From the NCBI GenBank assembly GCA_012549035.1, contig GCA_012549035.1_4805.1: DNA of 64,000 nucleotides, one strand, 5' to 3'. Below are positions 44,594 through 57,401 of the stretch, one piece after another. This DNA is from a phage. The position numbers and the translations under genes were made by a program. A model generated the notes under the pieces. That model did not search any database and was not told where the DNA came from. It was given only the letters and a program-made list of their open reading frames with translations. How positions within the stretch are numbered: position 1 is the first letter of the stretch; each line of letters opens with the position of its first letter.

Positions 44594-45439
44594 GTGAATA
44601 TGGCCGAAGCAATCAAAGTATTATCTAAAGAAGAAAAACAAGCAGCCGCAGCAGAACGTCGTCGCGTGGCTGAAGAAAAACGCCTGGCTAAAAAGAAAGA
44701 AGCCGAAGAGAAACGCCAGAAGCGTGAGCAGGAAAAACAAGCCAAGCGTGAAGAAGCTGCGCTGAAACGCAAGCAGGCTGCTGATGAGAAGGCTCAGAAG
44801 CGTGCTGAAGAAGCAGCTAAGAAAGCTAAAGAGCGTGCAGAAAAGGCTGCTGCTAAGAAAGCAGAGCGTGAAGCCGCTAAAGCAGCAAAAGAAATCGAAA
44901 AGGCAAAGGCTAAAGAAGAAGCCAAGCGCCTGAAAGCTGAGCAGGCTGCGGCCAAGAAAGCAGAGCGTGATCAAGCCCGTGCTGCAGCGAAGGCCGAAAA
45001 AGAGAAGGCCAAAGAAGAAGCTAAAGCGAAACGCAAGGCAGAGCGTGAAGCTGCTAAGATTGCGGCGAAAGAAGCTGCAGAACAGCAGAAAGAACAGCGT
45101 AAGAAAGAAGCTGAAGAACGTCGCAAAGCCATCGCAGAACGTAAGGCTGCTAAAAAGGCAAACGGTCAGCGTCGTGCAAAAGCCACTCACTTCATCTACA
45201 CTGGCAATGGCCTGAGCCAGCCGCAAGAGCATTCCACTCGTGGACGCGTTCTGGCGGCGATCAAAGAAGGCGAAGTTGGCGTGGCGCAGTCTATCGATGA
45301 GCTGGGCGAAAAAGTTAAAGATCAACTGTTTGGCGCTTCCGTTCGCTCCTACCTGAGCAAGCTGGAAGAGATGGGCCACATCGAGTTTGTCGATGTTGAA
45401 TCCAACGACGATGCTGAAGACGGTGATCAAGCGGAATAA
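44594..45439 (+). CDS. K/E/A/R-rich charged-helix protein with globular C-terminal domain (281 aa)
   Basis: About 190 aa of AEEKR/AKKAE-type low complexity, then about 80-aa C-terminal domain; host-optimal codons. Confidence 0.6.
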   Translation: MNMAEAIKVLSKEEKQAAAAERRRVAEEKRLAKKKEAEEKRQKREQEKQAKREEAALKRKQAADEKAQKRAEEAAKKAKERAEKAAAKKAEREAAKAAKEIEKAKAKEEAKRLKAEQAAAKKAERDQARAAAKAEKEKAKEEAKAKRKAEREAAKIAAKEAAEQQKEQRKKEAEERRKAIAERKAAKKANGQRRAKATHFIYTGNGLSQPQEHSTRGRVLAAIKEGEVGVAQSIDELGEKVKDQLFGASVRSYLSKLEEMGHIEFVDVESNDDAEDGDQAE

Positions 45440-45467: not shown

Positions 45468-45494
45468 GACCCACACTTGTTGTGGGTCTTTTTT
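45468..45494 (+). terminator. intrinsic terminator
   Basis: GACCCACA-cttgt-TGTGGGTC followed by TTTTTT. Confidence 0.65.
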
Positions 45495-45573
45495 CGTCTG
45501 TACTAAATAGAAATGACTTGTTGCTGTAAAATAATTTAGCTATTATACTTCTCATATCACCCACAAAGGACAA

Positions 45574-46569
45574 ATGAACATGAAACAACATGTAATGATT
45601 ATCGGCGGCGGTTTGGCAGGACTTATTACCGCGTGTCACTTCCCGAACTCTATTGTGTACGAAGCAGGGGAGCGAGCGCAGCAGCACAAGGCGTTGCTAC
45701 GCTTTCGCGGCGAAGAAGTAAGCCGTATTACCGGAATCCCTTTTAAGGCCGTGACAGTTGACAAGGCTGTGTATTTTCGCGGCAACTACTACCACGACCA
45801 TTGCCCAATCAACCTTGCCAATATGTATTCCATGAAGGTCACCAATCAATTCGGTAGCCGCTCAATTATGAAGCTTAAAACTGCAACGCGTTATATTGCG
45901 CCTGATGACTTTTATGATCAGCTTGTCGACAAACTGGGTGACCGCATATTCTTTAACACTCCTGTTGATACGCTTTGCGGCTATAGCGAGACGCCAATCA
46001 TCAACACGTCGCCGCTGCCAGTCATGATGAAGCTTGCTGGGATTGATCAAAAGATTGATTTCTCATTCGATAAGGCGAACATTCGTGTTTACCGCTTTAA
46101 GATTAAACGCAAGTGTGAACTGTATCAAACCATTTACTTCCCTGACTACTCCGTCAGAACTTACCGCGCATCAATCACTGGCGACACATTGATCATCGAA
46201 ACAATTCCTTTGGTTAGCGTAAGTGAAGCTGCAGTTGAAGCCGCTGGCGGCATTACTCGTTACCGTGACATTAAGTTGCGTGCAGAAGTTGACGAAGTGT
46301 TGACAGCCTTTGGCCTCTCATGGAGTGACATTACTCTTGAAGAAGTTGAAAAGGTCGACCAGAAATATGGCAAGATTGTCGACATTCCGAAGGACTTGCG
46401 ACACGCCCTACTCCTGCAGCTGACTATGGATTTGAACGTGTTTAGTGTCGGTCGATTTGCTACCTGGCGCAACATTTTGCTTGATGATGTCGCTCATGAC
46501 CTTGTTGAAGTTGAAAAACTCATCAAAGCAAATAACTATCAAAAATTTGCTTATATTGCTAATAAATAA
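45574..46569 (+). CDS. FAD/NAD(P)-binding oxidoreductase-like protein (331 aa)
   Basis: N-terminal Rossmann dinucleotide-binding motif MIIGGGLAGL. Confidence 0.55.
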   Translation: MNMKQHVMIIGGGLAGLITACHFPNSIVYEAGERAQQHKALLRFRGEEVSRITGIPFKAVTVDKAVYFRGNYYHDHCPINLANMYSMKVTNQFGSRSIMKLKTATRYIAPDDFYDQLVDKLGDRIFFNTPVDTLCGYSETPIINTSPLPVMMKLAGIDQKIDFSFDKANIRVYRFKIKRKCELYQTIYFPDYSVRTYRASITGDTLIIETIPLVSVSEAAVEAAGGITRYRDIKLRAEVDEVLTAFGLSWSDITLEEVEKVDQKYGKIVDIPKDLRHALLLQLTMDLNVFSVGRFATWRNILLDDVAHDLVEVEKLIKANNYQKFAYIANK

Positions 46570-46634
46570 TTTGCTTTCTGCTTCAATGGGCGTATACTTT
46601 AATCATTGAAGCAGAACTCATAGAGGAAACGAAA

Positions 46635-47081
46635 ATGAAACGAATCACTGGAATCGCGCTTGCCGCAACCGCTATTCTCGGCACCATGTATATGGAAGCT
46701 ACTGAAGCGGCTGTCCGCACTTCCGATTCAGTAGCTGTGTATGATTGCGAAGCGATGGACGGTAAAACCGCAGCAGCCACTGGCGCAACTATCACGGCTT
46801 ACATCGGCGTGAACGAGCAAGAAGGTCTGAATATTCAGATTCAAGGATTCACAGGCAAAGGTGCCAACCGCACTCCTTGGATGCAACGTTTCACTTTCGT
46901 TCAGCCTCGTTCAACTGGCGGCTTTATCAACCTGATTGGTGAAAATCGTTCTGGTGCAGAAATCTTTACATCAATGAGTTCTAATAATGAACCAAAGAAA
47001 AGTTTTCAGTTGCTTTATAACGCACAATTCGTTTATCATTGCACCTTCTCTGGTGATCAGCAACTAGTAAATTACCGTTAA
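46635..47081 (+). CDS. secreted/periplasmic protein (148 aa)
   Basis: N-terminal signal-peptide-like MKRITGIALAATAILG. Confidence 0.55.
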   Translation: MKRITGIALAATAILGTMYMEATEAAVRTSDSVAVYDCEAMDGKTAAATGATITAYIGVNEQEGLNIQIQGFTGKGANRTPWMQRFTFVQPRSTGGFINLIGENRSGAEIFTSMSSNNEPKKSFQLLYNAQFVYHCTFSGDQQLVNYR

Positions 47082-47094
47082 TAGGATAATTAAA

Positions 47095-47904
47095 ATGAAA
47101 GTTGAATTAATTCGATACACCCAAGATGCACTTGACCTTTTGCTGGAAACAAAGAACACGCGCATGACTGGTAAGCCTGTCTCTGAGATGACGGAATCAG
47201 AGAAGCAAGAGCATTGGCGCTACATGCTTGACACCATCAAGTCGCCTTTTGACTTTGTGGACTATATCTTTGACATCACCGCTGTATCAAAGAATATGAC
47301 TCATCAGATGGTACGCACACGCACAGGTGCATATCAAGAACGCACCAGCCGCGCTCAGGAATCTTCTGCATTTGATGCGATTCGTCCGAAGGCATTCGAG
47401 CACCCTTCTGACTGCAATGATGAAAATGCATTTGATGATGTGCACATAAGACATCACTCATTGGCAGAGAAATGGGATGATGCAATGGCGACTATCGATG
47501 CTTTGTATCAAGAACTTCGCGCGGCTGGCGCAGAGATTCAAGATGCACGTGCCGTGTTGCCTTCTAATATGCAAACGCATATCATGGCAAAGTTCAACTT
47601 GCGCACCCTGCAACAAATGGCTTCCAACCGCTTGTGTACGCGCACCCAAGGCGAGTATCAGGAAGTTTTCCGTGCGATGGTAGCGGAAGTCCTCAAGGTG
47701 CACCCGTGGGCTAATCCTTTACTACAGCCGCAATGCATCGGTATGGGCAAGTGCGCATTCCCTCGCCATGGCAAGGCCCATTGCCCTTGGTATCGTGATT
47801 GGATGGATACCACTGCACAGCAAGAAGAGTTGCGCATCCAGTTTTGGGATGCCGCGCCAATCACCAATAATCCAGTTGCTAAAGATGGAGTATCAAAAGG
47901 ATGA
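47095..47904 (+). CDS. ThyX-like (flavin-dependent thymidylate synthase family) protein with RTR in place of RHR
   Basis: N-terminus MKVELIRYT and block ARAVLPSNMQTHIMAKFNLRTLQQMASNR resemble ThyX; signature region reads VRTRTGAYQERTS. Confidence 0.6.
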   Translation: MKVELIRYTQDALDLLLETKNTRMTGKPVSEMTESEKQEHWRYMLDTIKSPFDFVDYIFDITAVSKNMTHQMVRTRTGAYQERTSRAQESSAFDAIRPKAFEHPSDCNDENAFDDVHIRHHSLAEKWDDAMATIDALYQELRAAGAEIQDARAVLPSNMQTHIMAKFNLRTLQQMASNRLCTRTQGEYQEVFRAMVAEVLKVHPWANPLLQPQCIGMGKCAFPRHGKAHCPWYRDWMDTTAQQEELRIQFWDAAPITNNPVAKDGVSKG

Positions 47905-48773
47905 GCATTAAAAACAGCGAAATCTTAAACGTATTCGACCTTGACGGAACGCTGTTTGATGACCGTTGGCGCTTAGACCGCATCAAGGTGGCAGGTCCGT
48001 TGTCAGACTATGATGACTATCACAGCGGTATTGGTTATGATCAGTTCTATCCTCACATTGCATCAGCAGTAGAGTCGGCATCTCTTCGCGGTGAGGCGGT
48101 TGAATATTGGACTGCAAGGCCAGAAAAATACAGACAAGTGACTTTTGAACGTCTGGACAATGTTTTCCCTTTTGATGAATTTACAATCAAGATGAGAGAC
48201 TATGGCGACAAACGTCCATCAACTATTATGAAATCTGCATGGCTATCGCACGCTTTGCGGCACGGCGATTATCGAATCATCAATGTATTCGACGACCGAC
48301 AAGACGTACTCGCGCGGATGCAAGATGAAGCATTGTATTATAACTCCGTTGCTCAAAATAAAATCGCTTTTACATTTAATCTTTGCAAAGCAGGTGAAGT
48401 GGTGCAACAATTAGCAATTGATCCAAGCGCAACAGGGCAAGAAGAGACTAAGGCTGTGGAAGTTGAACAATCTCCGGCAACTGCCGCCGATATTCTTGAT
48501 GCGATGGCCGCGACCTTCCGTGAGCGCAATGCCGTTTATGGCGATAACGCTGTGATGGTAGGTCAGGTTATGCAGGTGTTGTTCCCTAATGGCGTAACTT
48601 TGAAGACACCGGAAGACTACCACATGTGGCATCTGTTCGAGCTTAAGATTGTCAAGCTTACACGCTTCGCAATCAGCGGCCTGAAGCACGAAGACTCAAT
48701 ACGCGACGATGGTGTTTATAGCGCCATGTGTGAACGTCTTGTAAACACCCATAATATTAATTTCAATAAATAG
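47901..48773 (+). CDS. HAD-superfamily phosphatase fused to C-terminal domain of unknown function
   Basis: HAD motif I VFDLDGTLFDD and motif IV-like NVFDDRQD; about 140-aa unknown C-terminal domain. Confidence 0.55.
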   Translation: MSIKNSEILNVFDLDGTLFDDRWRLDRIKVAGPLSDYDDYHSGIGYDQFYPHIASAVESASLRGEAVEYWTARPEKYRQVTFERLDNVFPFDEFTIKMRDYGDKRPSTIMKSAWLSHALRHGDYRIINVFDDRQDVLARMQDEALYYNSVAQNKIAFTFNLCKAGEVVQQLAIDPSATGQEETKAVEVEQSPATAADILDAMAATFRERNAVYGDNAVMVGQVMQVLFPNGVTLKTPEDYHMWHLFELKIVKLTRFAISGLKHEDSIRDDGVYSAMCERLVNTHNINFNK

Positions 48774-48838
48774 TTTACTTGTGCGTTTCGATGAGTTATA
48801 TTTACCTCATCGAAACGAAGTCCAAAAAGGATAAATAA

Positions 48839-49522
48839 ATGAAAAAAGTAATTGTTGTAACAGGTTCCAATTCCGGTCTTGGTAAATCTATTTTTGACAC
48901 CCTTGGCGCTTACGGTCATAACGTGCTTGGCATCGATTCAGCATACGGATATGACGTCCGCGATGCTAAACAGATGAAAGAAATTTTAAGCCCATGTGAT
49001 GTTGAAGGCTTGATCAACTGTGCTGGTGTCAACTCTAACAATTGGTTTGAAGATGTAAACTATGAAGAGTTTAACCGCGTTATGCACACCAACGCATTCT
49101 CTTTCGTTAACACGACTCAGGCTGCGCTGAAAAGTCTTATCGACAACAAAGGCTTTGTGATCAACATCGTTTCCAACGCTGCGCATATTCCTATGACGTC
49201 CAGCTTGTGTTATAATGCATCCAAGGCCGCTGCGCTTATGATCAGCAAGCAGATGGCTCACGAACTTACGCCTAAGTACGGCATCACGGTATTCTCTATT
49301 AGTCCTAACAAGTTGCGCGGCACTGGCATGTCTAAACAGATTGAAGATGCCGTTTGCGCGACTCGCGGCTGGACTCCTGAATACGCTGCTGAATACCAGA
49401 AAAAGGCATTGATGAATGGATTGGAAACTGAGCCGCAAGTAATTGCTGACTTCATTCGCCATATCTTAATTACGGGCGCATGGCGCTTTATGTCTGGCAC
49501 TGATATTCCATTTGGTAAATAA
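48839..49522 (+). CDS. short-chain dehydrogenase/reductase (SDR) family protein
   Basis: TGSNSGLG cofactor motif and YNASK catalytic motif. Confidence 0.65.
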   Translation: MKKVIVVTGSNSGLGKSIFDTLGAYGHNVLGIDSAYGYDVRDAKQMKEILSPCDVEGLINCAGVNSNNWFEDVNYEEFNRVMHTNAFSFVNTTQAALKSLIDNKGFVINIVSNAAHIPMTSSLCYNASKAAALMISKQMAHELTPKYGITVFSISPNKLRGTGMSKQIEDAVCATRGWTPEYAAEYQKKALMNGLETEPQVIADFIRHILITGAWRFMSGTDIPFGK

Positions 49523-49614
49523 CAAACATTTGAAGTTGTCACACCCGCTCCTGAAAAGAAACAGGACGAAGACAACACAGTAATTAATCAATAATATTTA
49601 ATTAAGGAAACAAA

Positions 49615-50166
49615 ATGCCACATTTTAAAATTGAACAAATCGCCCTGTCAATTCCAGATGCTCAGCGCGCACAGGATTTCTTGGCTAAAATCGGCCTGAC
49701 AGAATGGTTCCATGATCATGTTGTTGCTACTGGTCGCGTATTTGAAGCTGATGACTTTAAAGGTCGTCGCGACGATTGCACCAATGAAGCTGACTTGCGC
49801 TTCAACTATCAGGCTGGCAACGGTACTGATGGTGGCGCTGGTAAGCCTCTTGAGCTTGAAATCCTTGACTACACAATGGGCTGCAACTGGATTAACGAAA
49901 ACATCGAATATATCGATGCGCATGACAATCAGGTCAGCCATCTTGGCATGCACGTAACTGCCGCTGAACTTGCTGAATGGCGTAAGTTCTTTAGCGAAGA
50001 AGGCATTCAGGTTGCACAGGAAGTTGTAACTGACTCTCATACCAACCCGAACATTGCTGGTCAACGTCGTTACAACTATGTGATCTTTGATACGCGTGAA
50101 ATCATCGGTGTTGATTTGAAGTTTATCGTGCGCTTGAATCAAGACGGTACTCCGTACACTGTATAA
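49615..50166 (+). CDS. hypothetical protein (183 aa), possibly VOC/glyoxalase-like
   Basis: ORF with good context; fold assignment speculative. Confidence 0.5.
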   Translation: MPHFKIEQIALSIPDAQRAQDFLAKIGLTEWFHDHVVATGRVFEADDFKGRRDDCTNEADLRFNYQAGNGTDGGAGKPLELEILDYTMGCNWINENIEYIDAHDNQVSHLGMHVTAAELAEWRKFFSEEGIQVAQEVVTDSHTNPNIAGQRRYNYVIFDTREIIGVDLKFIVRLNQDGTPYTV

Positions 50167-50220
50167 CGAATCGTGAATCTGTGGCCGTCCTAATGGGCGG
50201 CCTTTTTGTAGGAGGCCAAT

Positions 50221-50763
50221 GTGTTATTTCTCCCTTATGACTTCGAAACAACCGGATTAACCGTGCACCCGAAAGCGCCGCTTGGAATGCAGCCGCGCCC
50301 TATTGAATTTGCAGGCTTGCTGACAGACGGCAAAGAGATTCTTGAAACGTTTGAATTCATAATTAATCCTGAAATCGTGATCGAAGAAATCATCACAAAG
50401 ATTACCGGATTAACAAATGAAGACCTTGAGTGCAATCCACCGTTCATCAATTTCGTCCCGCAGCTAAAAGAAATCCTCAAGAAGACTGATGCAACTATCG
50501 CGCACAACCATGCGTTCGATAAAAACATTCTTGATTATGCACTACAGCGCGAAGGACTTACGCTTGATGATGTTAATTTTCCAGAAATAAACATATGTAC
50601 AGTTGAGCAAACCTTGCCTATTTTTGGCCGAAGAGTTAAGCTTCAAGAGCTGTATGAATTATATTTCGGAAAATATGAACAGAAGCACCGTGCATTAGAC
50701 GACGTAATATTACTGCACAAAGTCTGCCAACAAATTGGCGTATATGACATCTGGAGTAAATAA
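50221..50763 (+). CDS. DnaQ-like 3'-5' exonuclease (DEDDh)
   Basis: Exo I YDFETTGL, Exo II HNHAFDKNIL, Exo III HRALDD motifs. Confidence 0.7.
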   Translation: MLFLPYDFETTGLTVHPKAPLGMQPRPIEFAGLLTDGKEILETFEFIINPEIVIEEIITKITGLTNEDLECNPPFINFVPQLKEILKKTDATIAHNHAFDKNILDYALQREGLTLDDVNFPEINICTVEQTLPIFGRRVKLQELYELYFGKYEQKHRALDDVILLHKVCQQIGVYDIWSK

Positions 50764-53660
50764 TGTTTCCACAATTGAGAGTTCGCAGCGGTTACACGTT
50801 CAAAGAAGTTTATGGACGGCATCCTGAAATTATAGCACGGCTCAAAGAGTTGGGCTGCGAAGTCGCGGCATTAGTTGATAACAACACATGGGGTCACGTT
50901 CGCTGGGAAAAGGAATGCCAGAAAAATGATATTAAGCCTATGTTTGGAATGGAGATTCCAATCATCGACCCTGATGCGGACCCTAAAAAGGGATTCAAAC
51001 CGAAGGCTTGGATATTGGCCCTTGACTTAAAATCTTTTTACAACGCTACAACACTTTCAACGCAGCGCGGTGGACTTACCCGTTCAGAGTTCGGTGCGCT
51101 CGATGGCGTCGTTAAATTCTGTGGCGGTGCCGTGGAGTTGCTGCGGCCAGAGGACTACGACTATATAGACGTCAACCCATCATCGTTCCTTTTGGCAAAG
51201 CGCCAGGCATTGGCTCATCGTAGCAGTGGAAGGCCGCTGGTTTTAACCGGATACAACCACATGCCTTCACCTGAGCACGTTGACTTTGCTTATGCGTGGG
51301 AAGTGCGCGACACGGTCAAGCCGCACTGCATCGTTGACGCGGAAGACTTGCGCAAACAGCTTAAAGGCATCTTGACTGAAGATGAGCTCAATCAGGCAAC
51401 GGCCAATGCTGTTGACATAGCAAACGGCATAGTCGGACTTGACCTGAAATTACGCAAGGCACCGATTATTCACCTTGCTGGTGACATGGTAAAGCTTGCT
51501 CGCGAGGGTATGGAGTACCGTCTAAAAGCAGGTCACATCAAAGAATGGACTCAGGAATACGAGGACCGCTTCAACGAAGAAATTCACCAGATTCAGCTGA
51601 AAGATTTCGACTCATACTTTCTGGTGGTAGCGGACCTTGTACGATTCGCAAAAACAAAAATGCTCGTCGGTCCTGCGCGCGGCTCATCGGCTGGTTCACT
51701 TGTTTGCTATTGCCTCGGCATCACGGAAGTGGACCCAATCCCGTATAAGCTGCTGTTTGCCCGATTCATCGACGTAAGCCGCGCCGACCTTCCTGACATC
51801 GACATCGACTTTGAAGATACCAAACGCTATATGGTGTTTGATTATCTTAAAGAGAAATACGGCGAAATGAACGTTGCAAAGCTTGGCAACATCAACACGC
51901 TTAAGGCCAACTCAGTAATGGCTCAAGTTGGTAAGAAGTTCAACATTGGATACCACGAAACAGCCAACATTAAAAACGCACTGCTTGAATACTCATCCGG
52001 TGACGCCCGTTATGGTCACGGCCTGGAGGATACCTTTGCAACAACGACCACGGGTCAAGAGTTCGTGGCTAAATATCCCGATGCCGCGCGATGCATGGGT
52101 GACCTTGAGATTCACCCTTCCCACACTGGCGTTCACGCAGCGGGAATCATCGTGTGTAATGACCCAATCTCTGATTACTGTACTGTAACTGCAGAAGGGA
52201 TTGCGCAAATCGATAAGCCTGACAGCGAATACCTCAACCTTTTGAAGCTTGATGCACTGGGCCTTCGTACTCTCGGCATCATTTCTGATACAGGCGTCAT
52301 TGATGCTGAAACGCTGTACGGAATCAAGCTTGATGATCAAAGTGTCCTTGACATTCTTAATGAAAACAAAATGTCAGGCATCTTCCAGTTTGAAGGTGAT
52401 GCTGTACGCTCAGTAACAAACTTTGTGCACGTCGATAACTTTAACAAAATCGACAACCTGACGGCGTTGGGTCGACCTGGACCATTGTCATCCGGTATGG
52501 CCCAGAAATACATTGAACGCGCGGCAGGGCGTGCGCCGATTGAGTACGACGTGCCGCAGCTTGAGCCGTACTTGAAAGAGACTTACGGCGTGTTTCTTTA
52601 CCAAGAGCAAATCATGGCCGTGGTTAAAGAGATTGGTTCATTTGACTGGGCGAAAACATCCGCTGTACGTAAGGCGATGTCAGGCCGTAAGGGTGAGGAA
52701 TACTTTAACAAGCTTGGCGAAGACTTCGTTGCAGGCGCAATAAATAATGGCGTGCCGGAAGCGGATGCAAGAAAGCTTTGGCAGGCGATGGCGACGTTCG
52801 GGTCATGGGGCTTTAACAAGTCACACTCCGTGTCATACGCGGTCGTGACCTACTGGACCTTGTGGCTTAAACGACACTACCCGTTGGAATTTGCCGCTGC
52901 TTGCTTACGCGCTGCTAAGGACGAAGACCAGACGATTGCGATATTACGTGAACTTGCGAAGGAAGGCGTGGATTATGTGCCAATCGATCCTGATCACTCT
53001 TCAATGAACTGGACCATCGCTAACGGAAAGCTAATCGGCGGCATCATGAACGCTAAAGGGTACGGAATGGTGAAGGCGATGAAGTACATCGAAGCACGTG
53101 AAGCCGGAACCTTAACGCAAAAGCAGAAGGATGCATTGGCCAATGCTGAAGTCAAATACGGCGACCTTACAGAGATGCACACCAAGTTCGGCTGGGCATA
53201 TAATGACCCATATCTTATTGGCGTCACTTCCGGCGCTTCAATACGCCAGATGAAGGAAGTAGGCGATGATGAGCGTGCAATAGTAATCGGCAAGTTGACA
53301 AAGAAAGTGCTTGCGGACGAGAATGAAGCAACACGCATCCGTAAACGACTTGAGCGCGGCATCTATACAAAGCACGGCAAGCTTAAAAAGGGTCTTCAAG
53401 CTGATGGCCGCTACGCAGAGTTTGACCAGTACGGGAACAAGCTTGAGACTCAGTTCATCGACCTTATGTGCAAAGACGACTCGACCGACTCGCCAATGCG
53501 ATTCAGGATTCGTCCAGAGAAGTTCCAGAAGTACGGGAAGTACATCGCTGAAAACGTCGGGAACGGCGCATTCTTCCTGATGAAAGGTCGTAAGCTTGAA
53601 GGCATTGACATGTTCATTGTTGACGTGATCAAACAGGTGTACCCAGATGGCAACAAATAA
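50763..53660 (+). CDS. DnaE-type DNA polymerase III alpha-like catalytic subunit
   Basis: 965 aa; N-terminal PHP-like start and PDIDIDF polymerase active-site motif. Confidence 0.75.
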   Translation: MFPQLRVRSGYTFKEVYGRHPEIIARLKELGCEVAALVDNNTWGHVRWEKECQKNDIKPMFGMEIPIIDPDADPKKGFKPKAWILALDLKSFYNATTLSTQRGGLTRSEFGALDGVVKFCGGAVELLRPEDYDYIDVNPSSFLLAKRQALAHRSSGRPLVLTGYNHMPSPEHVDFAYAWEVRDTVKPHCIVDAEDLRKQLKGILTEDELNQATANAVDIANGIVGLDLKLRKAPIIHLAGDMVKLAREGMEYRLKAGHIKEWTQEYEDRFNEEIHQIQLKDFDSYFLVVADLVRFAKTKMLVGPARGSSAGSLVCYCLGITEVDPIPYKLLFARFIDVSRADLPDIDIDFEDTKRYMVFDYLKEKYGEMNVAKLGNINTLKANSVMAQVGKKFNIGYHETANIKNALLEYSSGDARYGHGLEDTFATTTTGQEFVAKYPDAARCMGDLEIHPSHTGVHAAGIIVCNDPISDYCTVTAEGIAQIDKPDSEYLNLLKLDALGLRTLGIISDTGVIDAETLYGIKLDDQSVLDILNENKMSGIFQFEGDAVRSVTNFVHVDNFNKIDNLTALGRPGPLSSGMAQKYIERAAGRAPIEYDVPQLEPYLKETYGVFLYQEQIMAVVKEIGSFDWAKTSAVRKAMSGRKGEEYFNKLGEDFVAGAINNGVPEADARKLWQAMATFGSWGFNKSHSVSYAVVTYWTLWLKRHYPLEFAAACLRAAKDEDQTIAILRELAKEGVDYVPIDPDHSSMNWTIANGKLIGGIMNAKGYGMVKAMKYIEAREAGTLTQKQKDALANAEVKYGDLTEMHTKFGWAYNDPYLIGVTSGASIRQMKEVGDDERAIVIGKLTKKVLADENEATRIRKRLERGIYTKHGKLKKGLQADGRYAEFDQYGNKLETQFIDLMCKDDSTDSPMRFRIRPEKFQKYGKYIAENVGNGAFFLMKGRKLEGIDMFIVDVIKQVYPDGNK

Positions 53661-55663: not shown

Positions 55664-55927
55664 ATGGTACGCATCCTTGAACGTTACAAAAATGAAGCTA
55701 CTGGAGTAATCGCTTTCAAACGTCTTTTGGTCAAAGAAATTGACGGAATGTTCCGCGTTGTTAAAGAGTTTGATTATGGCAACGGTGCTGGGGTGAATAC
55801 CGTTATTATGCCTGGCATCAAGGCATATAAAACCTTAAAAGGCGCTGAGAAGGCTTTGGCGGCTTGGAAACCTGAACGTTATCAAATGACCCGTGTTGAA
55901 GGGCTAATGCAAGAAGGTAAAATATGA
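55664..55927 (+). CDS. hypothetical protein (87 aa)
   Basis: ORF with RBS-like GAGGAA upstream. Confidence 0.5.
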   Translation: MVRILERYKNEATGVIAFKRLLVKEIDGMFRVVKEFDYGNGAGVNTVIMPGIKAYKTLKGAEKALAAWKPERYQMTRVEGLMQEGKI

Positions 55928-56481
55928 GCAATATTAATTGGGAAGATGATTTGCCGCAGGTTGCTCCTGAGAGCATTCAAGAGCGCCTTGCGCGCTTAGT
56001 ATCTGAACTGGCAGAACGCCAAGAAGCTTTGACGGAGCTTGAAGATGAAGCTGATATGCAAAAGCAGCGCATCAGTGAAATCAAAACTGTTCTGCTTCCT
56101 GGCGTTATGGATGAGCTTGGTGTGTCTGAAATCAAGCTTGAGGACAAGACCAAAATCAAGGTCGAGTCAAAGGTGAATGCTTCAATCAAGAAAGAAAACG
56201 AATTAAAAGTTTTCGATTGGCTTGTCAACAACGGTTACGGCGGCTTGATCAAGTCCAGCGTCACGGCTGAGTTCGGTCGCGAAGAAATCGAACAGGCGCA
56301 AGAGATTGTTGCCGCGCTGCGTGAAGATGGTGTTGAAGCCACGTTGAAACAAGGCGTTCACTCTGCTACACTGAAGTCGTTTGTAAAAGAACAGCTGGAA
56401 GCGGGCAATCCAGTTAGTGAAGATATTAGCGTTTTTGAATACAAAGAAGCTAAAATAACCTTGCCTAAAAGCAAAAAGTAA
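55924..56481 (+). CDS. hypothetical acidic protein (185 aa)
   Basis: ATGA overlap with upstream gene. Confidence 0.5.
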   Translation: MSNINWEDDLPQVAPESIQERLARLVSELAERQEALTELEDEADMQKQRISEIKTVLLPGVMDELGVSEIKLEDKTKIKVESKVNASIKKENELKVFDWLVNNGYGGLIKSSVTAEFGREEIEQAQEIVAALREDGVEATLKQGVHSATLKSFVKEQLEAGNPVSEDISVFEYKEAKITLPKSKK

Positions 56482-56540
56482 TTTAACCTTTATCTTGAAA
56501 TCAGGTTGCCACGAAACTTGATACTATAGGAAAATATCAA

Positions 56541-57401
56541 ATGTCTAAGAAAGAAACTACCGAAGTTGCAGTGAAAAACACCCAGATGTCCGCTATGGCT
56601 GATTTTGTCGACATGACCGATTTTGGCGCTGGTTTTGAAGGTGCCGATGCCGATGCGTATGCCATTCCTTTTATCGTCGTACTGCAGAAGATGTCTCCTA
56701 TGGTCGACGAAGATGATCCAAAACACGTTCCTGGCGCAAAAGCTGGCATGCTTTACAACACCGTTACTGGTGAGTTGTATGACGGCAAGAAAGGCGTGCA
56801 GATCATCCCTTGCGCATTCAAACGCACCTTCATTCTTTGGGGCGGTCGCGAGTCCGACGATAAAGGCTTTAAAGGTGAATTCACCAAAGAGCACGTTGAT
56901 GCAGAAGTCGCGGCAGGCCGCGCTGTTGAGATCAACGGTAAGGTATTCGTGCCGGACGAAAACGGCAAGGTGCACGAGAAGAAATCTCCTTACTACGCAG
57001 ATACACGCAACCACTTCGTAATTCTGTTGAACGAAGAAACTGGTGAATTTGGTAGCGCAATGCTGTCTCTGACTTCTTCCATGATCAAGCCGTCTCGCAT
57101 GCTGATGACCGCTCTGCAGCAGAAGAAAGTTCAGACTCCGCAGGGTCTGAAAACGCCGCCGACCTTTATGAACATCGTTCGCATGGGTACTGCATCCCAG
57201 TCCAAAGACGGCAACACCTGGTCTGTTCTGAAGTTTGAGCTGGAAGGTCTGGTGCAGGACAAAGGCCTGTACGAAGTCGCCAAGGCATTCCACAACGACG
57301 TAGTTGGCGGTAACGTTAACATCGACCGCAGCAAGCAGGAAGAAGCAAGCGGTGCCGCTGGTCCTGTCAATGAAACTCCGACCGACGCAGAAGAGTTTTA
57401 A
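56541..57401 (+). CDS. ssDNA-binding protein-like
   Basis: 286 aa; acidic C-terminal tail ending in DAEEF (terminal Phe as in T7 gp2.5 and bacterial SSB); in replication module. Confidence 0.45.
   Translation: MSKKETTEVAVKNTQMSAMADFVDMTDFGAGFEGADADAYAIPFIVVLQKMSPMVDEDDPKHVPGAKAGMLYNTVTGELYDGKKGVQIIPCAFKRTFILWGGRESDDKGFKGEFTKEHVDAEVAAGRAVEINGKVFVPDENGKVHEKKSPYYADTRNHFVILLNEETGEFGSAMLSLTSSMIKPSRMLMTALQQKKVQTPQGLKTPPTFMNIVRMGTASQSKDGNTWSVLKFELEGLVQDKGLYEVAKAFHNDVVGGNVNIDRSKQEEASGAAGPVNETPTDAEEF

Follow-up and report, generated by a model that had tools for sequence, protein, structure and literature searches.

The window analysed here is a stretch of phage DNA of 64,000 nucleotides (nt; contig GCA_012549035.1_4805.1, assembly GCA_012549035.1), and the subject of this work is a six-gene unit at positions 45574–50166, which encodes a ThyX-like protein, a flavoprotein and four further proteins next to the phage replicase. 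The interval is 93–96% identical to the Wifcevirus coliphages SP13, F13, WFC/WFH and BASEL Bas98–101. All six genes lie on the plus strand, and terminator-like hairpins with T-runs flank them on both sides, immediately outside the first start codon and the last stop codon. The features of the unit and the two genes that follow it are given below.

45468–45498 (hairpin 45468–45488), plus strand: terminator-like hairpin, GACCCACA..TGTGGGTC then a T-run; ends the upstream gene and forms the 5′ limit of the unit
45574–46569, plus strand: FAD-type flavoprotein, 331 amino acids (aa; phrog_4828, 4e-149)
46635–47081, plus strand: protein of 148 aa with a signal-peptide-like N-terminus, inside the unit, lineage-specific
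47095–47904, plus strand: ThyX-family protein of the 'non-His' class, 269 aa (Pfam Thy1, 1.2e-29)
47314–47355, plus strand: ThyX-motif region RTRTGAYQERTSRA, residues 74–87 (HMMER and MAFFT alignments)
47734–47784, plus strand: C-terminal extension with invariant cysteines C214, C220 and C230 (CIGMGKCAFPRHGKAHC; C-x5-CAFPR-x-G-x3-C), Wifcevirus/Pbunavirus clade
47901–48773, plus strand: capless PNKP-type HAD phosphatase with a DUF6378-like domain, 290 aa (HAD_PNKP 33.5 bits, cutoff 27.6)
48839–49522, plus strand: classical short-chain dehydrogenase/reductase (SDR), 227 aa (adh_short 9e-32)
49615–50166, plus strand: VOC/glyoxalase-superfamily-like protein, 183 aa (weak Glyoxalase_4 match, E 0.004)
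50183–50212 (hairpin 50183–50202), plus strand: terminator-like hairpin, GGCCGTCC..GGGCGGCC then a T-run; 3′ limit of the unit
50221–50763, plus strand: DnaQ-like 3′-5′ exonuclease, directly after the module
50763–53660, plus strand: PolIII-alpha-type replicase, after the exonuclease

Since the hairpins enclose exactly the six genes, the interval resembles a single transcription unit with its own termination, set within the replication module, and one operon is the most likely explanation. The stop of the ThyX-like gene and the start of the HAD gene overlap by 4 nt. A preliminary description of this DNA, made from the letters alone, had listed five adjacent plus-strand genes for enzyme-like proteins; all five are in place, and a sixth, the VOC-like gene, had been left out. 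The metabolic cluster that it recognised is real, far beyond chance, as judged from the flanking hairpins and from the recurrence of the gene set, in order, in many unrelated viral contigs.

The ThyX-like protein lacks the active-site histidines and the lid tyrosine

The ThyX-like protein, 100% identical to its counterpart in ManiWeber Bas99, covers the Thy1 profile end to end (positions 2–191 of 191; Pfam), misses the TIGR02170 equivalog cutoff (80.3 versus 87.9 bits; NCBIfam) and is matched by ThyX structures in the PDB at E 2.5e-4 at best. In the HMMER alignment to the Thermotoga maritima and Mycobacterium tuberculosis ThyX structures, RTRTGAYQERTSRA pairs gaplessly with RHRIASYNELSGRY. The HMMER and MAFFT alignments concur in placing RTR at residues 74–76 (nt 47314–47322), bearing out the preliminary reading of RHR as RTR. 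A mis-registered RHR motif can be rejected, as the two methods agree and the threonine is invariant. The spacing given there, RTR(x8)S, was off by one: the canonical serine (T. maritima Ser88) pairs with Thr84, and Ser85 is its neighbour. The motif of the window is thus RTR(x7)T, departing from RHR(x7)S. In T. maritima numbering, Arg78, Arg80 and Arg90 are retained, His79 is replaced by Thr, Ser83 by Ala, Ser88 by Thr84 and Tyr91 by Ala87. Mapping of the active site, which the same description had proposed as a check, confirmed that His53, His79 and the lid residue Tyr91 are lost and that the Arg and Gln residues contacting the nucleotide are all retained.

These replacements are not peculiar to one phage. 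The 120 closest homologues (at least 53% identity, nearly all from 60–74-kb phage contigs) share Thr75, Ala87, Ile48 and Arg183 without exception, and every dUMP-binding arginine is likewise invariant. The dUMP-binding set of Arg78, Arg80, Arg90, Arg147, Arg174 and Gln75 is invariant in 121 close homologues and present in 84–85 of 85 module-linked proteins. An alignment of these 85 proteins with 70 cellular ThyX proteins, in T. maritima numbering, gave the following comparison.

His53: module-linked 0/85; cellular 69/70
His79: module-linked 0/85 (Thr 66, Ser 17, Asn 2); cellular 70/70
Tyr91, aromatic or His: module-linked 0/85 (Val 47, Ala 32); cellular 70/70
Ser88: Ser in 23/85 module-linked; Ser in 70/70 cellular
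Arg78, Arg80, Arg90, Arg147, Arg165, Arg174 and Gln75, contacting the phosphate and uracil of dUMP: retained in both sets

Loss of His53, His79 and the lid tyrosine is a signature of the clade, and the invariance of the signature residues indicates selection rather than decay. Among 1.84 billion representative proteins, the nearest 150 clusters mostly read R[T/S/N/Q]R, and the canonical RHR...SQRY shows up solely in the weakest matches. By its sequence, the ThyX-like protein falls outside canonical ThyX.

In the folate-bound T. maritima enzyme, His53 is stacked against the pterin of the cofactor. The RHR motif of flavin-dependent thymidylate synthases hydrogen-bonds the phosphates and ribityl of FAD, and the tyrosine forms a lid that keeps solvent off uracil C5 and flavin N5 (PMC6514825). 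Compared with ThyX (PF02511; T. maritima TM0449, M. tuberculosis Rv2754c), the phage class shares the whole-length domain and the dUMP-binding Arg/Gln set, with FAD-side Arg165/Asn163 conserved as well. It differs in reading R[T/S/N]R, in lacking His53, in having Ala or Val in place of the lid Tyr91 and in carrying an invariant Arg at position 178; it also falls below the TIGR02170 cutoff, is virus-restricted and is paired with a second flavoprotein (see below).

The Wifcevirus/Pbunavirus clade alone adds the C-terminal cysteine extension, which also bears RxWMD and FW motifs. C214, C220 and C230 are invariant in 121 of 121 close homologues, and alignment shows the extension to be missing from canonical ThyX and from the versions in Ss1 and Y65. 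It could be a metal site, a redox site or a docking site. Recruitment of the ThyX scaffold for another nucleotide substrate has a precedent in PolB, a ThyX-like UMP C5-methylase of polyoxin biosynthesis. PolB still methylates and is not known to have a partner flavoprotein. Neither a characterised ThyX partner nor a ThyX-based hydroxymethylase turned up in the literature searched.

A partner flavoprotein and a virus-restricted module

The flavoprotein carries a GxGxxG motif at residues 11–16 (nt 45604–45621) and a C-terminal motif, GRFATWRNILLDD, at nt 46450–46488. No Pfam family, GLF included, matched it even at E up to 10, and NCBIfam gave nothing beyond Rossmann-tip matches with E > 0.1. 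Its fold resembles UDP-galactopyranose mutase (UGM) and protoporphyrinogen oxidase (PPOX); similarity to solved UGM structures was found, and two independent structure searches both ranked UGM first, with 17% identity over the aligned region. Compared with UGM and the protoporphyrinogen/amine oxidases, which are two-domain FAD enzymes, the phage protein is 100–150 residues shorter, is 12–17% identical, lacks a Pfam match and differs in its conserved basic residues.

By tblastn, the flavoprotein is present in 362 phage records. The majority (292) are from Pseudomonas phages (Pbunavirus), and the other hosts are Escherichia, Serratia, Rhizobium, Xanthomonas, Pantoea, Vibrio and Aeromonas. The flavoprotein was also used to collect 80 loci from IMG/VR; in 76 of them a ThyX-like gene, always non-His, lies 0.8–3.9 kb downstream of it. 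Homologues of the other proteins were counted in the same 80 loci: DUF6378-like domain 68, HAD 63, exonuclease 56, PolIII-alpha 52, SDR 50 and VOC 48, with many of the loci that lack the exonuclease or PolIII-alpha ending at a contig edge. Distant lineages show a compact order of flavoprotein, ThyX-like, HAD-DUF6378, SDR, VOC, exonuclease and PolIII-alpha, and gene set and order are retained across lineages at 30–50% protein identity. The exonuclease and PolIII-alpha trail the module in nearly all of them. Pbunavirus LMA2 has, one after another, genes for the flavoprotein (gp65), small open reading frames (ORFs), ThyX-like (gp59), HAD fusion (gp57), exonuclease and PolIII-alpha. In Cronobacter podophage Ss1 the flavoprotein gene (product 36% identical) overlaps a ThyX-like gene of the RNR type, and a HAD-DUF3310 fusion and PolIII-alpha come next; in a 207-kb Rhizobium phage the flavoprotein and RNR ThyX-like genes are 1.5 kb apart.

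As a cellular control, one genome for each of 185,579 species was scanned with a profile of the RTR class. The scan returned 10 close relatives, all on metagenome-assembled genome (MAG) contigs of scattered taxonomy and non-His wherever the motif was readable. All 10 loci carry the flavoprotein nearby, plus the exonuclease or PolIII-alpha. The other 70 matches are more distant cellular ThyX proteins (69 RHR, one motif unread), and none of these 70 loci has a flavoprotein, HAD, SDR or VOC gene nearby. The 10 MAG loci with the flavoprotein, set against 0/70 cellular loci, show that the non-His ThyX class is virus-restricted and obligately paired with the flavoprotein. No cell using the RTR class as its sole thymidylate synthase was found, the 10 close matches all being on phage-like MAG contigs. 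The neighbouring genes are a co-inherited module, not an accidental association.

An analogous arrangement occurs upstream of DnaE in Microbacterium Krampusvirus actinophages. Potty (L174, 4099–6182) has a flavoprotein-like gene and a 439-aa ThyX-like protein with RQR..ESMRF, and Sparcetus (L173, 2279–5594) has flavoprotein-like, HAD, SDR (35%), VOC (33%) and DUF6378-like (49%) proteins. The 'oxidoreductase' of these Microbacterium phages was considered as a homologue of phrog_4828; the profile match was at E 0.1 with shared motifs only, and homology is not claimed.

Palindrome signature and restriction phenotypes

The virion DNA of two Pbunaviruses, F8 and 14-1, carries a hypermodified thymidine in place of about one quarter of T, in a TG context, and resists enzymes with TG in the recognition site (Yee et al., bioRxiv 2025.03.31.646159). 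The window was compared with F8 by the observed/expected ratio (O/E) of the 64 palindromic hexamers under order-4 Markov expectations, 16 of which contain TG/CA and 48 do not.

Window, 1–64000: TG/CA 0.99, others 0.73; strongly depleted 0/16 versus 12/39 (Fisher p 0.012)
Bas99: TG/CA 1.02, others 0.76; strongly depleted 0/16 versus 12/39 (Fisher p 0.012)
F8 (modified): TG/CA 0.96, others 0.73; strongly depleted 0/15 versus 12/44 (p 0.026)
T7: TG/CA 0.60, others 0.58; strongly depleted 6/15 versus 14/37
Lambda: TG/CA 0.72, others 0.62; strongly depleted 2/16 versus 13/41
phiKMV: TG/CA 0.59, others 0.43; strongly depleted 3/14 versus 18/33
T1: TG/CA 0.67, others 0.73; strongly depleted 6/16 versus 14/44

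The TG/CA signature of the window matches that of the experimentally modified F8, unlike the four unmodified controls. None of the 16 TG/CA palindromes is absent from the window, compared with 16 of the 48 others. Palindromes with CC/GG are absent or strongly depleted in 12 of 14 cases; CCATGG and TGGCCA, the only two that contain TG/CA, are the only two at expectation. The window has no BamHI, KpnI, XbaI, XhoI, SacII, EagI, BspEI or AgeI site, with up to 19 expected, and the 4-mers GATC (O/E 0.40), CCGG (0.53) and CTAG (0.54) are under-represented. In pooled module-bearing loci of other lineages the ratios are 0.88–0.91 for TG/CA palindromes versus 0.62–0.65 for the others; in cellular loci they are 0.92 versus 0.92.

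Wifceviruses withstand most restriction systems tested, with EcoP1_I as the exception (PMC11990801). The efficiency of plating (EOP) of Bas98–100 is ∼1 on EcoCFT_I, EcoRV and EcoCFT_II and 0.3–0.9 on EcoRI, and plating fails on EcoP1 (PMC11990801). Bas98–100 plate on the restriction hosts despite the presence of sites, of which 38, 8 and 92 were counted. The site counts for the Bas99 genome (L085 and L170 together) agree with the BASEL S2 table; CACAG gives the tabulated 92 EcoCFT_II sites, as do four further 5-mers. Sites that contain TG/CA (EcoKI-type, EcoCFT_I, CACAG) go with resistance or are untested, and AGACC, without TG/CA, goes with sensitivity. The published puzzle that these phages resist EcoCFT_II yet are sensitive to EcoP1_I at like site numbers parallels whether or not the recognition site contains TG/CA. 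A model in which TG modification alone accounts for Wifcevirus resistance fits the EcoKI-type, EcoCFT_I, CACAG and EcoP1 data and fails for EcoRI and EcoRV.

A candidate gene set for thymidine modification

The modified nucleosides of Pbunavirus have masses of 362 and 390 Da; the first was described as derived from a tetrose sugar-alcohol and the second from a cyclised aldopentose, and the authors stress that such phages are without homologues of known modification genes (bioRxiv 2025.03.31.646159). The later papers examined that cite this work assign no genes. By mass arithmetic, 362 equals 5-hydroxymethyldeoxyuridine (5-hmdU; 258) plus tetritol (122) minus 18, and 390 equals 258 plus pentose (150) minus 18. 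Pbunavirus, the sister genus, has the flavoprotein, ThyX-like and HAD genes in common with the window. Between 14-1 and F8, which carry different thymidine adducts, the flavoprotein is 97%, the polymerase 96% and the ThyX-like protein 94% identical; identity falls to 79%, with indels, for the HAD-DUF6378 fusion and to 78–82% for gp59, gp61 and gp62, small ORFs that flank the ThyX-like gene.

In the known pathways of thymidine hypermodification, a dUMP hydroxymethylase of the ThyA family acts first, and the kinase 5-HMUDK and then transferases take over from it (Lee et al. 2018; NAR 2021, PMC8989533). No ThyA-type hydroxymethylase, 5-HMUDK or TET/JBP was found among the 19 window ORFs scanned with Pfam or in the curated Bas98/Bas99 annotations, small ORFs not having been exhaustively profiled. 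The outcome in Pbunavirus is like that in M6, ViI, SP10 and PhiW-14, in that part of the T is given a C5-methylene-linked substituent in a sequence context; a thymidylate-synthase-type enzyme within the replication module is likewise common to both. The difference is that the ThyA-type enzyme, 5-HMUDK and transferases were not found here and the sole thymidylate-synthase relative has the unrelated ThyX fold.

We propose that the module carries out the reactions of the thymidylate branch that underlie a Pbunavirus-like modification of thymidine in DNA, a role to which we give a probability of roughly 0.45. In its favour, 5-hmdU-type adducts occur without a ThyA-type hydroxymethylase in the sole chemically examined lineage, and the TG/CA signature of the window is like that of F8. 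The preliminary description had suggested a nucleotide or DNA-base modification pathway in preference to plain thymidylate synthesis. The non-canonical ThyX, the co-inherited module, the hypermodified thymidine of Pbunavirus and the F8-like palindrome signature all agree with that suggestion; the links of the module to DNA modification are all associative, and a role in thymidine modification is plausible but unproven. The ThyX-like/flavoprotein operon is the best genetic candidate for the Pbunavirus thymidine modification genes.

In the mechanism that we envisage, a virus-restricted pyrimidine-C5 module would feed the PolIII-alpha replisome that the phage itself encodes. The lack of a lid and of the histidine on the folate side may leave the 5-methylene intermediate of ThyX catalysis exposed, and removal of these two residues would be expected to divert it from hydride reduction to capture by a nucleophile. 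Instead of simply being reduced, the exposed intermediate might react with water or some other nucleophile, or be passed to the partner flavoprotein, and the product would be a precursor of the 5-hydroxymethyl-dUMP type. The partner flavoprotein may provide the missing flavin half-reaction, either re-reduction or C–H or N5-adduct chemistry. The HAD-DUF6378 protein could police nucleotides or phosphorylated intermediates, and the SDR and VOC proteins could shape a lineage-specific substituent. A further step, acting on the DNA itself and specific for sequence (TG context), would have to exist. In its fullest form the proposal makes the non-His ThyX a flavin-dependent dUMP hydroxymethylase or alkylase, working with its UGM/PPOX-fold partner as a two-flavoprotein system in which the 5-methylene is captured. 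This would be a second, ThyA-independent route to hypermodified thymidine derived from 5-hmdU, widespread in phages with a PolIII-alpha of their own, and Wifcevirus DNA would, like that of Pbunavirus, be T-modified at TG, explaining the restriction resistance of the BASEL isolates. This extended version is tentative and, taken as a whole, somewhat doubtful.

Several points weigh against a modification role. All nucleotide-binding residues are intact, so that a working dTMP synthase is still possible, and a hydrogen bond to the FAD phosphate could still be made by the Thr, Ser or Asn that replaces His79. Modification in a TG context calls for a DNA-reading enzyme, and neither a glycosyltransferase nor a kinase was found among the six proteins. 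SDR and VOC genes are missing from Pbunavirus, the sole lineage for which there is chemical evidence, and the Sparcetus locus with its flavoprotein-like, HAD, SDR, VOC and DUF6378-like genes holds no ThyX-like gene. The palindrome test has four negative controls, and lambda and phiKMV trend weakly in the same way. GAATTC and GATATC contain no TG/CA, yet the EOP on EcoRI and EcoRV hosts is 0.3–1; resistance at such sites misfits a TG-only model, which is therefore incomplete.

The best-surviving alternative, and one that is quite possible, is ordinary nucleotide supply. The non-His ThyX would be a phage-type flavin-dependent dTMP synthase, the flavoprotein its dedicated reductase or electron donor, and the HAD, SDR and VOC proteins accessory nucleotide or cofactor enzymes, with DNA modification encoded elsewhere. 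A Thy1 match of 1e-29 over the full length of the profile, retention of every dUMP-binding Arg and Gln, and the position within the replication module, adjoining the replicase, are all in keeping with such an enzyme, and dTTP is needed for the three quarters of T that are canonical in Pbunavirus. Replacement of Ser88 by Thr would be benign, as Ser88 is not the catalytic nucleophile; Koehn et al. are said to have established this for ThyX in 2009. Against this stands the partner: RHR-type ThyX of cells and actinophages works without one, no flavoprotein accompanies any of the 70 cellular loci, and the UGM/PPOX/amine oxidase fold class differs from known flavin reductases. Loss of the lid tyrosine and His53 in every member is hard to square with unchanged chemistry, the score falls short of the equivalog cutoff, and in the 185,579-species scan the class is never the housekeeping enzyme of a cellular genome. 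Neither nucleotide supply nor a modification role explains the TG specificity.

Alternatively, the flavoprotein could be a sugar-nucleotide mutase-like enzyme that, with the SDR, VOC and HAD proteins, makes a sugar or sugar-alcohol donor for decorating DNA, the ThyX-like protein supplying pyrimidine only. An SDR plus a phosphatase is a standard route from a sugar phosphate to an alditol, UGM is the top hit of both structural searches, and the Pbunavirus adducts were described in terms of a tetrose sugar-alcohol and an aldopentose. Donor synthesis is nonetheless improbable. The identity to UGM is low and the Pfam GLF family gives no match; the flavoprotein tracks the ThyX class rather than SDR/VOC, being present in Pbunavirus and Ss1, both of which lack SDR and VOC; no nucleotidyl- or glycosyltransferase was found in the unit; and the HAD domain belongs with the capless phosphatases of polynucleotide ends, not with a sugar-phosphatase type. 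That unrelated auxiliary or 'moron' genes lie side by side by chance, with RTR a product of neutral drift or gene decay, is scarcely credible: in public annotations the SDR does appear as a moron or an auxiliary metabolic gene, and the other genes mostly as hypothetical, but this idea is already contradicted by the conservation of gene set and order at 30–50% identity across lineages, the cellular-locus control and the residue comparison, with its invariant signature residues, as well as by the overlapping reading frames and shared flanking terminators.

A role of the module in thymidine modification would matter for phages in practical use, since pbunaviruses are among the most used therapeutic phages against Pseudomonas aeruginosa. 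The ThyX-like protein, the partner flavoprotein and the HAD-DUF6378 protein are named here as the prime candidate set, which is small, conserved and experimentally tractable, with a residue-level rationale in the loss of the lid tyrosine and two histidines. For coliphages, which can be propagated on engineered K-12, the proposal predicts modification in a TG context. A ThyX methylase turned hydroxymethylase or alkylase would, if real, be new enzymology in a validated antibacterial drug target family and would provide a new marker by which modified phage genomes could be predicted from nothing more than their sequence.

Other proteins of the unit and its surroundings

The HAD fusion consists of a HAD domain at residues ∼1–175, with DLDGT at residues 13–17 (nt 47937–47951), and a DUF6378-like four-helix domain at residues ∼195–280, with FRERNAVYGDN at nt 48516–48548. 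Asp13, Asp15, Asp131 and Asp132 of the HAD domain are invariant in 41 homologues. Unlike the Pnkp proteins of T4 and Clostridium, whose 3′-phosphatase is of the HAD_PNKP type, the phage protein has the DUF6378-like domain in place of a P-loop kinase, for which a domain search was negative. A PDB sequence search found no relative. Given a phosphatase-type HAD joined to a DUF6378-like domain and no kinase, the public name 'polynucleotide kinase/phosphorylase' (Bas98_0050, LMA2 gp57 and others) is unjustified.

The SDR is generic and FabG-like, with TGSNSGLG at residues 8–15 and YNASK at residues 125–129. The VOC-like protein scores 17.8 bits with Glyoxalase_4, a weak match under the cutoff of 27; it had no relative in a PDB sequence search, and its gene is missing from Pseudomonas Pbunavirus. 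The 148-aa protein, which had been counted as a secreted member of the cluster, lies outside the conserved module: it has a homologue in only 3 of the 80 module loci, all three Wifcevirus, and no Pfam, PHROG or NCBIfam match. Pbunavirus LMA2 has five small ORFs at its position.

Upstream of the module are a Dda-like helicase and a Lys/Ala/Glu-rich protein.

44594–45439, plus strand: Lys/Ala/Glu-rich low-complexity protein, 281 aa (phrog_4765), directly upstream of the module

The phrog_4765 protein travels with the module in Pbunavirus-like lineages only (32 of 80 loci), and its counterpart is named 'putative structural / cell wall associated' in the LMA2 record. A long antisense ORF opposite its gene (44621–45430, minus strand) is probably a composition artefact. 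Further downstream, at 55924–57401, two neighbouring genes match the cyanophage Pam3 gp33 and gp34 families (DUF7307 2.6e-37; Pam3_Gp34 4.2e-86). They sit between a helicase gene and spanin, MazG-like and ligase genes and are conserved candidates for replication or modification roles.

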